Below are positions 13,120 to 58,810 of a stretch of DNA of 64,000 bases, piece after piece. The notes under the pieces are model-generated. The model made no database searches. It saw nothing but the letters and a program-made list of their open reading frames with translations, and was not told the origin of the DNA. The number at the start of each line of letters is the position of its first letter. Position 1 is the first letter of the stretch. Source of the DNA: Rickettsiales bacterium. Its GTDB lineage: Bacteria; Pseudomonadota; Alphaproteobacteria; Rickettsiales; UBA1997. The stretch is from positions 6,874-70,873 of the forward strand of contig JBIKKP010000001.1 in NCBI GenBank assembly GCA_044360285.1, read 5' to 3'. A program made the translations under genes and the position numbers.

Positions 13120-13632
13120 TTACTCTGCGCTGTTAGAATCCTTATTTTTACGGAAAGCATCAAGAGATATAACTTTAGCCGACAAATCAACGCCAGCAGA
13201 CTTCTTATCGGTATTTAAATTTTTATTGGCTCGATTTGATTCACCAAAATCAACGTCCTCAGGATGTTCAAACTCGCTATAATTCATGCTGAACTTAAGC
13301 GCAAAATTCATCGAAGGATCAGAAAAAGAAGTGATTGCCTTGTATGGAACGTGCAATTTTTCATATTTTCCAACGAAGCTCAGCGACACTTCAAAATAGT
13401 CATCTTCAACAACGAGGCCGCGATATTGGTGCTGCATGACAATGGTCATTTCTTCCGGATATTTCTCGAGCAGCTTTTTAGAAATCACAGTTTCAGGAAA
13501 GCGCGTAGCAAAGGTAATGACGAAGTAATGCTTCCCGGGCAAACCAGTTTTTTGTACTTTTTGCAAGCTGGCACGAATCACAGAACGCATCGCCTTTTCA
13601 ATTATGTCGTCATATCCGATTTGGTCTTGCAT
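13120..13632 (-). CDS. sspB: ClpXP adaptor SspB (alphaproteobacterial type)
   Basis: KYPEEMTIVMQHQY, VPYKAITSFSDPSMNFALKF and a C-terminal VISLDAFRK ClpX-binding-type tail. Start set to M28 of the track ORF because the upstream 81 nt overlap the ssrA terminator. Confidence 0.8.
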   Translation of the reverse strand: MQDQIGYDDIIEKAMRSVIRASLQKVQKTGLPGKHYFVITFATRFPETVISKKLLEKYPEEMTIVMQHQYRGLVVEDDYFEVSLSFVGKYEKLHVPYKAITSFSDPSMNFALKFSMNYSEFEHPEDVDFGESNRANKNLNTDKKSAGVDLSAKVISLDAFRKNKDSNSAE

Positions 13633-13656
13633 GATGAAAATGAGTAAAATTAGGCC

Positions 13657-13695
13657 GAAAAAAATGCCCGGGCTTCTGTTGAAAGGTGCCCGGGC
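13657..13695 (-). terminator. rho-independent terminator of ssrA
   Basis: Minus strand reads GCCCGGGC (13695-13688) - 14-nt loop - GCCCGGGC (13673-13666) followed by ATTTTTTT. Confidence 0.7.
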
Positions 13696-14125
13696 GAACC
13701 CCGACAAGATCACTTATGCTAAGCAGCTACAGCCACTTTAGCAAATTCGAAATTGTCATTAGCAAAGTTATCGTTTGCGTTTACTTGTTTTGAACGGATG
13801 TCCGTAAAGCTTGCGCCTCTAAGACCGGCAGTTTCTCAACCGAGTAAAATCATTCCCTTTAGCGAATGTCGAAAGCTATTCACCCCCCTAACCGAAATTT
13901 TCAAGAGAATGGCTCAAATAACCTTCGTCACAGATTTTCATAAATCTGGGAGAAGGCGTTGCCACACAAGCGATGTGCCTTGAAATTAGATCGTAAGCCG
14001 AAAACAGCCGTTAAGGCTGTTTTCTCGGTGGAGGTGCTGGGTACCGCCCCCAGGTCCATAACGTTTATTACGAAATGCATTTATCACCATAGCGTGCAGC
14101 CCTTACGAACCACAAGCGCCAAGCA
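13657..14125 (-). ncRNA. ssrA: tmRNA, circularly permuted two-piece type (acceptor piece upstream, coding piece downstream); outer boundaries approximate
   Basis: Coding-piece 5' end is GGGGGTGAATAGCTTTCGAC from ~13887 downward. The acceptor 3' end is T-arm CTGGG-GGCGGTA-CCCAG + CACCTCCACC, ending at 14027. Pairing gives G3:U70. The tag frame is ...GCT AAT GAC AAT TTC GAA TTT GCT AAA GTG GCT GTA GCT GCT TAG (13763..13719) = ANDNFEFAKVAVAA. Confidence 0.85.
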
Positions 14126-14165
14126 AGCTAGGAACAAAAAAGAAATTAACAAGAGACGTAAAAAA

Positions 14166-14188
14166 GGCGGGAGTTTTTAAGTCCCGCC
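14166..14188 (-). terminator. rho-independent terminator (hairpin flanked by A/T runs on both sides)
   Basis: GGCGGGA-loop-TCCCGCC, followed by TTTTTT on the minus strand just after the 14213 stop. Confidence 0.7.
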
Positions 14189-14212
14189 TCAAGTTTTTTT
14201 AAGTAAGAGCGA

Positions 14213-14566
14213 CTAATAAACGCCGGCTTCTTTAGATGTTGGAGCAGATGGCACTAAATCCTGACCAGTAATTCTTTTCATCTCAGCGCGATGTCTTTCC
14301 ATTTCTTTTTTCACTTCTTCTCTTTGCAACGGAGTTAGAGATTTCATAACTTGGTGACGTTTTTCCATTCTTGCCCGCTCTTCTGGAGAGGCATTTTGCA
14401 TACGCTCTTCTCGACGTTGCGGCATGGCTTTTTTATCATTTGAACTAGCTAACTTATCGGCAGCAAATCCCCTTTCAGAACTAGCGGAAGGAGCGGCATC
14501 TGGCGCGGCTTGACAGATTGTTGAGGTAAAAGCCAATAAGGCAAAAATTGTTAAAAATTTTTTCAT
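14213..14566 (-). CDS. small secreted LTXXQ-motif (Spy/CpxP-like) periplasmic protein
   Basis: Signal peptide MKKFLTIFALLAFTSTICQA. LTPLQ motif. Charged helical body. Confidence 0.55.
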   Translation of the reverse strand: MKKFLTIFALLAFTSTICQAAPDAAPSASSERGFAADKLASSNDKKAMPQRREERMQNASPEERARMEKRHQVMKSLTPLQREEVKKEMERHRAEMKRITGQDLVPSAPTSKEAGVY

Positions 14567-58595: not shown

Positions 58596-58735
58596 GGAAG
58601 AAATAGAGTCTTGTTGGACCAGCCCTACTCCGCTCGCGTTGCGAGCTTCGAAGGGCAGCCTTCGCTCTAACGATCTCCGTCTGACAGTCCAGCCCAAAGG
58701 CCGGCCTGCCGGCCGTAGCTCGTAAGAGCGAAGGC

Positions 58736-58810
58736 TGGAGGCCAGGGTCGGAATCGAACCGACGAATGAGAGCTTTGCAGGCCCTTGCATTACCACTTTG
58801 CTACCCGGCC
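58736..58810 (-). tRNA. tRNA-Cys (GCA), CCA encoded
   Basis: Minus strand: GGCCGGG-TAGCAAAGTGGTAATGC-AAGGGCCTGCAAAGCTCT-CATTC-GTCGGTTCGATTCCGAC-CCTGGCC-T-CCA. 7-bp acceptor stem, anticodon loop CTGCAAA, T-loop GGTTCGATTCC. Confidence 0.9.

Follow-up and report, generated by a model that had tools for sequence, protein, structure and literature searches.

The minus strand at positions 13658–14153 of a 64,000-nucleotide (nt) stretch of contig JBIKKP010000001.1 from a Rickettsiales bacterium (the window, to which all positions refer) carries a genuine circularly permuted, two-piece alphaproteobacterial ssrA gene, the gene for transfer-messenger RNA (tmRNA). Minus-strand positions 14156 to 13665 match the Rfam model alpha_tmRNA (RF01849) over model positions 1–355 with 145 bits (gathering score 50, E = 1e-39), and tmRNA_permuted (RF04321) over positions 1–213 with 121.7 bits (threshold 47). 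These matches are far above chance level, and they place both the acceptor piece and the coding piece; the full-length match bears out the original prediction, made from the letters alone, of a two-piece gene on this strand. The account that best explains the locus as a whole, which we consider probable, is a permuted ssrA transcribed as one precursor, matured by cleavage and completion of its ends, and encoding a 19-residue tag in which the start motif ANDNF is doubled. The parts of the locus are as follows.

14125–14153, minus strand: likely ssrA promoter, a conserved motif of predicted function, with −35-like CTTGTTAA (14153–14146) and −10-like TAGCTT (14130–14125) 16 nt apart
14027–14120, minus strand: acceptor piece, predicted extent (RF01849 and RF04321 alignments, sequence, stem search)
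14037–14053, minus strand: T-arm, with CTGGG (14053–14049), GGCGGTA (14048–14042) and CCCAG (14041–14037), from the sequence
14027–14036, minus strand: acceptor 3′ strand CACCTCC (14036–14030), discriminator A (14029) and CC (14028–14027), from sequence and stem search
14001–14023, minus strand: hairpin AAAACAGCC-TTAAC-GGCTGTTTT, from the sequence
14000–14024, minus strand: the same hairpin extended to 10 base pairs (bp) by G14024:C14000, GAAAACAGCC-UUAAC-GGCUGUUUUC, directly after the ACCG tail
13888–14026, minus strand: intervening segment (IVS, or spacer), lying between acceptor 3′ terminus and coding-piece G1 and predicted to be excised from the precursor
13954–13964, minus strand: motif UGGCAACGCCU inside the IVS, invariant in alignments of the three spacers of family C (see below)
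13881–13887, minus strand: coding-piece 5′ strand GGGGGTG, from the sequence
13658–13887, minus strand: coding piece, predicted extent, through the tag frame to the terminator (Rfam model position 355 at 13665; sequence)
13719–13778, minus strand: tag reading frame, with resume codon GCA at 13778, ANDNF (13778–13764), ANDNF (13763–13749), EFAKVAVAA and stop codon TAG (13721–13719), from Rfam and from ARAGORN in relatives
13658–13695, minus strand: likely ssrA terminator, with GCCCGGGC (13695–13688), a 14-nt loop, GCCCGGGC (13673–13666), A, and U7 (13664–13658), from fold and sequence

The order of the two pieces is permuted, the acceptor (3′) part ending at 14027, upstream of the coding (5′) part that starts at 13887. 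Pairing of GGGGGUG (13887–13881) with CACCUCC (14036–14030) gives a 7-bp acceptor stem that includes the G3:U70 alanine identity pair, as had been proposed from the two ends. All the tested traits of a permuted alphaproteobacterial tmRNA are present at the locus except an encoded CCA: G14026 occupies the place of the final A, and ACCG (14029–14026) is encoded, not ACCA, a detail absent from the original prediction. ARAGORN reported no tmRNA either in the whole window or in 13600–14200, although it does find homologous genes in 18 relatives. One of these is L012, which is detected although it shares both its spacer family and its ACCG tail with the undetected window gene.

The prototype two-piece tmRNA is reportedly that of Caulobacter crescentus, from the work of Keiler, Shapiro and Williams in 2000. 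The window gene resembles Caulobacter ssrA in its order of acceptor piece, IVS and coding piece, in the G3:U70 pair of its tRNA-like domain, in its GCA resume codon, and in a tag that opens with ANDNF and ends in hydrophobic residues followed by AA; the adjoining SspB is homologous to the Caulobacter-type protein. Unlike Caulobacter ssrA, it has a second in-frame ANDNF in a tag of 19 residues, it encodes a CCA-less ACCG tail that can pair with a conserved hairpin starting at this 3′ tail, and its spacer exceeds the Rfam consensus loop by ∼110 nt. A doubled tag start, a CCA-less tail sequestered in a hairpin and a larger spacer amount to variants of a system that is already well understood. As such, the gene is an ordinary housekeeping RNA gene of the essential type, and detecting it is routine annotation.

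Relatives for comparison were chosen by similarity of SspB alone, and 80 loci, given here by L numbers, were fetched from species-representative genomes. The nearest are freshwater and marine metagenome-assembled genomes (MAGs), mostly labelled Rickettsiales, with SspB identities of 48–72%. The contigs reached through look-ups P0002, P0059 and P0008, and one of the two for P0003 (L209), stop short of the acceptor piece. Two Joint Genome Institute (JGI) metagenome contigs, L081 and L082, independent of each other, carry an identical locus with an IVS that is 100% identical, and the window sequence is therefore not an assembly accident. Identical contigs occur, for example, in the JGI lake samples 3300044627 and 3300042326.

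The spacer is 138 nt long when counted after the CCA-equivalent position and 139 nt when counted from 14027, in agreement with the ∼139 nt first estimated. The further claim that it is unusually long holds against the Rfam model loop (∼110 nt shorter) and against the outgroups (∼30–80 nt), but not within the family, where 32 spacers span 5–194 nt (median 77) and that of the window ranks 26th. A long, hairpin-rich spacer is thus typical of the family, not an exception in it. Spacers of only 5–27 nt are found in 11 of 31 relatives, and length jumps between sister pairs (105 vs 15, 136 vs 23 and 63 vs 10 nt). At least four unrelated spacer sequence families can be distinguished, each strongly self-complementary. 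The window IVS, which folds at −44.6 kcal/mol (z = −4.2), belongs to family C, together with its homologues in L012 and L208. No Rfam family covers it; permissive E-values, applied to it and to the tRNA-Cys trailer described below, gave only weak and meaningless hits (STnc420 at E = 4; mir-3160 and DUF1874 RNA far below threshold). A metagenome scan for further family-C spacers with the pattern AATTTCAAG-N(10–20)-GGCAACGCC returned 120 stretches, none with tmRNA context, and these were set aside as chance matches.

Large inserts in tmRNA genes have precedents. In the 2025 tmRNA database of 97,179 sequences, one permuted gene of 1152 bp contains a repetitive element, and a tRNA-Ala gene is reported within an IVS (PMC11915505); a palindromic element sits in the tmRNA gene of Rickettsia bellii (PMC1458961). 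The window gene shares with these the toleration of a large insert; it differs in that its insert has no detectable repeat within the 64 kb and belongs to a small three-species family with a covarying hairpin. The IVS would thus seem to be dispensable and subject to fast turnover, having been refilled time and again with unrelated inserts, structured or palindromic. As a hotspot of cassette-like turnover, it offers a handle on how tRNA-like 3′ ends attract and exchange such elements.

Several observations at individual loci touch on this turnover. The spacers of L207 (178–348; family B, 171 nt) and L208 (128–229; family C, 102 nt) are unrelated, yet the two loci share 91% nucleotide identity in sspB and 90% in the coding piece; identity falls to 80% in the part that holds acceptor piece and promoter. 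The pattern suggests that recombination broke the locus where the IVS meets the coding piece, although the contigs are short enough for a chimeric assembly to be possible. In L023 the C5/G5-rich IVS (family D, 2562–2667) has an inverted second copy at 2927–2988, in the interval that separates the tmRNA gene from sspB, with 90% identity across 62 nt; the repeated element is related to the spacer of L020, and L026 is also named in this connection.

A palindrome also stands elsewhere in the window, at a tRNA-Cys gene (58739–58810). Directly after its CCA follows a near-perfect palindrome of ∼80 nt, GCCTTCGCTCTTACGAGC...GAGATCGTTAGAGCGAAGGC (58655–58735, minus strand), itself followed by a second hairpin, and the 131-nt stretch 58740–58610 that takes in both folds at −69.8 kcal/mol (z = −5.2). 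The palindrome is 82–85% identical to the family-A tmRNA IVSs of five other species (L001, L002, L005, L008 and L009). The tRNA-Cys gene has an identical junction, CCTCCA|GCCTTCGCTC, to that of the L005, L008 and L009 tmRNA genes, which lack an encoded CCA because of it. The palindrome matches no Rfam family. A CCA-targeting element is one possible reading, capture of a tRNA trailer through microhomology another. Cassette-like spacer turnover, together with a palindrome common to a tRNA trailer and tmRNA spacers, may be among the more original leads from this locus.

The spacer opens with the hairpin that follows the ACCG tail. The 10-bp form folds at −15.3 kcal/mol (z = −5.4 against shuffles), and the CC(G) of the tail can lengthen the helix by pairing with CGG at 13998–14000, an extended fold that is also predicted; (C/U)GG, pairable with CC(G), follows the hairpin in the family-C genes. 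The same 10-bp hairpin opens all three family-C spacers (window, L012 and L208). In the alignment of these three species, five positions in the upper five pairs are changed on both sides of the stem and no pair is broken, and these compensatory changes therefore indicate that the pairing is under selection. We conclude on this comparative evidence that the hairpin is a real, conserved structure.

Loss of the encoded CCA accompanies the hairpin. ACCG is encoded by all three family-C genes and by none of the other genes examined. Separately, L005, L008 and L009 encode AGCC, making six genes of the family that lack a terminal CCA, with the type of deviation tracking the spacer family. The CCA position is not always CCA in tmRNA genes (PMC11915505). 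Six genes that do not encode it imply that 3′ cleavage and a CCA-adding enzyme would be needed for the tmRNA, and such genes, with their turned-over spacers, offer a handle on the maturation of CCA-less two-piece tmRNAs. The most likely role of the hairpin is to guide or protect 3′-end maturation of the CCA-less acceptor piece; at most it would be a leaky terminator.

A different view of the spacer is that it is a mobile or selfish palindromic insert, of the kind of the Rickettsia palindromic elements, and that its hairpin has no function in the tmRNA and is kept through the descent of the element. The patchy distribution of at least four unrelated spacer families on the tmRNA tree fits this view, as do the different families found in very close relatives, the occurrence of family A after tRNA-Cys in the window, the duplication of family D in L023 and the precedent of R. 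bellii. It is opposed by the absence from the 64-kb window of any second copy, be it of the family-C sequence or of the hairpin pattern, and by the compensatory changes, which point to selection on the pairing and not to mere inheritance; moreover, loss of the encoded A of CCA in each of the three family-C genes hints at a connection with 3′-end maturation. We regard such an insert as possible but doubtful, and continue to favour a part for the hairpin in maturation of the acceptor end.

The hairpin had been described as terminator-like, and this characterisation survives only in part: the structure is real and conserved, but its terminator character is weak. Like intrinsic terminators, it combines a stem containing G+C and a 5-nt loop with an A-tract before and a U-tract after. 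When the U-tract is kept free, however, the stem is reduced to 5 bp with −6.6 kcal/mol in the window, to −5.0 kcal/mol in L012 and to three G:C pairs in L208, followed by 4–6 U. In the window four U follow the 5-bp G+C core, in the tail TTTTCGGC (also given as UUUUCGGC), and the U-tract is predicted to pair with the A-tract. A terminator scan whose rule asks for five or more base pairs of G+C-rich stem, a short loop and at least five T in an 8-nt tail did not call the hairpin in the window, L012 or L208, the window tail being one T short of the rule. The two terminators that flank the gene are much stronger, with G+C stems of 8–9 bp, −15.3 and −19.7 kcal/mol, and free U6–U7. By these models we consider the hairpin weakly terminator-like.

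In such a weak terminator one might see an attenuator, with transcription from a single promoter and a hairpin that stops some of the polymerases, giving an excess of the acceptor piece or a tuned amount of the coding piece. The fixed polarity of A-tract and U-tract, combined with a covarying upper stem, and the near miss of the scan rule by a single T in the window would suit this; the L012 and L208 hairpins are likewise not called. The stems, however, are weak once the U-tract is free, and most relatives have no such hairpin, so that attenuation is no general requirement; we consider it unlikely. A bolder version, to which we give little credence, would make the hairpin a working terminator in the family-C lineages, with ssrA truly split or its pieces made in deliberately unequal ratio, and the spacers exchangeable 3′-end-forming modules that move between tRNA-like genes. 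Were it true, the spacer cassette common to the tRNA-Cys trailer would fit modules exchanged among such genes.

The arrangement of promoters argues for a single transcript. A motif consisting of CTTGTNAA, 15–16 nt and TAnnTT is found in 29 aligned upstream regions, 92–101 nt upstream of the T-arm in L001–L028 and 87–88 nt upstream in the marine L031, L034 and L035. With a matrix built on this motif the real sites score 11.5–35 bits, whereas the best score between the T-arm and the coding 5′ end is −2.6 in the window and at most 5.7 in any relative. A generic sigma-70 scan of 13300–14500 found no minus-strand promoter. An apparent second promoter over the coding 5′ end, CTTGAAAA...ATAGCTT, was rejected because its two elements stand 4 nt too far apart and the −10-like one belongs to the conserved 5′ sequence of the tmRNA, and a weak site, CTTGTGTG, 14 nt, CAGATT (13970–13943), on the grounds that it is not conserved in L012 and L208. 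At the other end of the gene the likely ssrA terminator folds at −19.7 kcal/mol with its U-tract free; the terminator scan flagged there only a spurious short stem, its rule being too strict for this genome.

The original prediction had suggested that the two pieces might be transcribed independently, and this finds no support in the comparisons made here. In that arrangement the hairpin at 14024–14000 would be the working terminator of an acceptor-only transcript, and the coding piece would have a promoter of its own in the spacer. The hairpin does lie directly after the acceptor 3′ end, with an A-tract, a G+C stem, a U-tract and fixed A/U polarity in three species, and promoter-like sequences can be pointed to in the spacers of L012 (sigma-70-like TTGGCA, 18 nt, TAAGAT) and the window (the weak site at 13970–13943). 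These candidates are not conserved among the three family-C spacers, however, and the family promoter motif, conserved upstream of the acceptor piece, has no counterpart in any spacer. The hairpin, with its 5-bp core, only three G:C pairs in L208 and 4–6 U (four in the window), also compares poorly with the flanking terminators at −15 to −20 kcal/mol. Finally, relatives with 5–27 nt spacers must use one transcript; spacers of this length, in 11 relatives, leave no room for a promoter, so that the family's ground state is a single precursor. We judge a split gene very unlikely. A permuted tmRNA precursor is known to be processed by tRNA-processing enzymes (reviews PMC11915505 and PMC3985003), and the window gene, too, is most likely transcribed as one precursor and cut into two pieces.

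We propose that the single promoter (14153–14125) would drive one precursor from about 14118 to the terminator at 13695–13658, in the order acceptor piece, 138-nt IVS and coding piece. The acceptor stem would form between 14036–14030 and 13887–13881, with the IVS looped out as an independently folded domain. RNase P would then cut 5′ of G13887, tRNA 3′-end enzymes would cut or trim the acceptor 3′ end at the base of the hairpin, and the CCA-adding enzyme, needed because ACCG and not ACCA is encoded, would complete it. The product would be a two-piece tmRNA that adds a 19-residue tag.

Some points weigh against this scheme. The covariation of the hairpin is drawn from only three sequences, in which the lower 4–6 pairs are always A:U with the A in the 5′ arm while the upper half covaries freely, the pattern of an intrinsic terminator, and the hairpin is located exactly where the terminator of an acceptor-only transcript would be. 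The terminator scan was strict and also missed the two plausible flanking terminators, which makes its negative result at the hairpin a weak one, and the promoter comparisons cover family-type and generic sigma-70 promoters only and would miss other kinds. The single precursor, its cleavage sites and the fate of the spacer are themselves inferred from sequence, and binding of SspB to either copy of ANDNF is argued by analogy.

The tag frame of the coding piece begins with the codons GCA AAC GAT AAC TTT | GCT AAT GAC AAT TTC and ends with VAVAA before the TAG at 13721–13719. The doubled, in-frame ANDNF start (13778 and 13763), noticed from the outset, is kept across the family: ANDNFANDN followed by a variable residue is encoded by all 30 sequences from the window and relatives L001–L029, and ANDNFANDN likewise by 6 further contigs. 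Among 27 distinct sequences, codons 1–9 contain six variable columns, all six of them third codon positions with C/T changes (hypergeometric p = 2.8e-4), as against 14 of the 21 columns just upstream of the tag. This restriction of variation to third positions in both copies of the motif argues, therefore, that both are translated and under selection at the peptide level. Copy 1 is five codons long in every one of the 27.

The resume codon is set by positions −6 to +1 (review PMC3985003). In this family the first GCA alone is preceded by an invariant U(−5) and A(−4), the second alanine codon coming after AACUUU. Rfam aligns the consensus resume codon with GCA 13778, and ARAGORN puts the tag start at the first GCA in 17 relatives. 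Given the Rfam alignment, the U(−5)A(−4) context and the synonymous-only variation in copy 1, we conclude from the comparison that the tag starts at the first GCA (13778) and has 19 residues, ANDNFANDNFEFAKVAVAA, with both ANDNF copies translated; of the two lengths left open by the original prediction, 14 and 19 residues, only the longer is upheld. Resumption at the second alanine codon, GCU 13763, which would leave the first ANDNF stretch as untranslated RNA and give the 14-residue ANDNFEFAKVAVAA, could draw on the divergence of copy 1 to AKINF or AKKTF in L031, L034 and L035 while the second ANDN stays, but we hold it to be highly improbable, with copy 1 always five codons long and varying only at third positions, the invariant context before the first GCA, and Rfam and ARAGORN both choosing that codon.

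The doubled start of the tag is thus a conserved trait of the family and no local oddity. In the marine and most distant members (L031, L034 and L035) the first pentapeptide reads AKINF or AKKTF, with the second ANDN unchanged, and the outgroups have a single ANDN. Codon usage differs between the copies: copy 1 has GCA and TTT throughout the 27 sequences, copy 2 has GCT in 26 of them, AAT in all and mostly TTC, and in the window all third positions differ between the two. These fixed synonymous differences (GCA/GCT, TTT/TTC) mean that the doubling is old and not a recent slip, and they may reflect RNA-level constraint or the avoidance of a perfect direct repeat. The Caulobacter tag has 13 encoded residues, ANDNFAEEFAVAA. 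ANDNFANDN and related strings are mentioned neither in the searchable literature nor in the supplements of the tmRNA database paper, and neither the tag variant nor the conserved hairpin is known to have been described before.

Directly after ssrA comes sspB, the gene for the specificity-enhancing adaptor of ClpXP for tmRNA-tagged proteins:

13120–13632, minus strand: sspB, 170 residues (Pfam PF04386; homology to solved SspB structures)

The protein matches the structures 2NYS from Agrobacterium (E = 5e-32) and 2QAS (1e-26) and 2QAZ (1e-25), both from Caulobacter, and PF04386 is precomputed for it and for 120 of 120 homologues listed. Its C-terminal end carries VISLDAFRKNK, which lines up with V(V/I)SLDAFRK, a conserved C-terminal stretch in the Agrobacterium homologue 2NYS. 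In the 64-kb window, the extent covered, a crude search for motifs in all six reading frames gave no SmpB-like open reading frame (ORF).

The tmRNA would add ANDNFANDNFEFAKVAVAA after the alanine that it carries itself. By analogy with known degradation tags, this sequence is most plausibly a ClpXP degron with two adaptor-binding motifs, or with a longer spacing between adaptor site and ClpX site, read together with the downstream SspB; the doubled N-terminal motif would most plausibly be recognised by this neighbouring SspB and the VAA end by ClpX. Like the Escherichia coli ssrA degron AANDENYALAA, it has an N-terminal AND-type motif and a C-terminal hydrophobic-AA end, with SspB encoded in the genome. 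Residues inserted between the SspB and ClpX sites alter adaptor dependence (PMC8138137). Unlike engineered tags with extra spacing (DAS+4), the insert here copies the N-terminal motif itself and is no neutral spacer. An aquatic Rickettsiales family thus keeps a doubled N-terminal motif under purifying selection beside the adaptor gene, a natural tandem degron and a natural experiment on how SspB and ClpX sites can be arranged in a degradation tag.

The association of ssrA with sspB is wider than the family. The tmRNA gene is found just upstream of sspB in most of the 80 fetched loci, distant Alphaproteobacteria included; the same-strand adjacency (L001–L060) extends to distant MAGs labelled Rhodospirillaceae, Paracoccaceae and Rhodobacteraceae, and in a few distant Alphaproteobacteria the two genes are 1.5–2.5 kb apart. 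The host of the window is an uncultured freshwater Rickettsiales bacterium, probably of Candidatus Gamibacteraceae, since the relatives L009 (UBA2645) and L035 (C-137) have been placed there (bioRxiv 10.1101/2021.08.31.458344).

The locus also carries a practical point for annotation, in that ARAGORN misses the gene and gene callers lay spurious ORFs over it. Mechanically derived ORFs that overlie the tmRNA gene include a GTG-initiated one at 13120–13713 and, on the plus strand, those at 13753–13983 and 13959–14180. Public gene calls are also wrong here: the SspB clusters P0048 and P0049 have an N-terminal 'MILSG...' extension that comes from the tmRNA 3′ end, and on a JGI contig a gene of 43 residues is called within the acceptor and spacer region.

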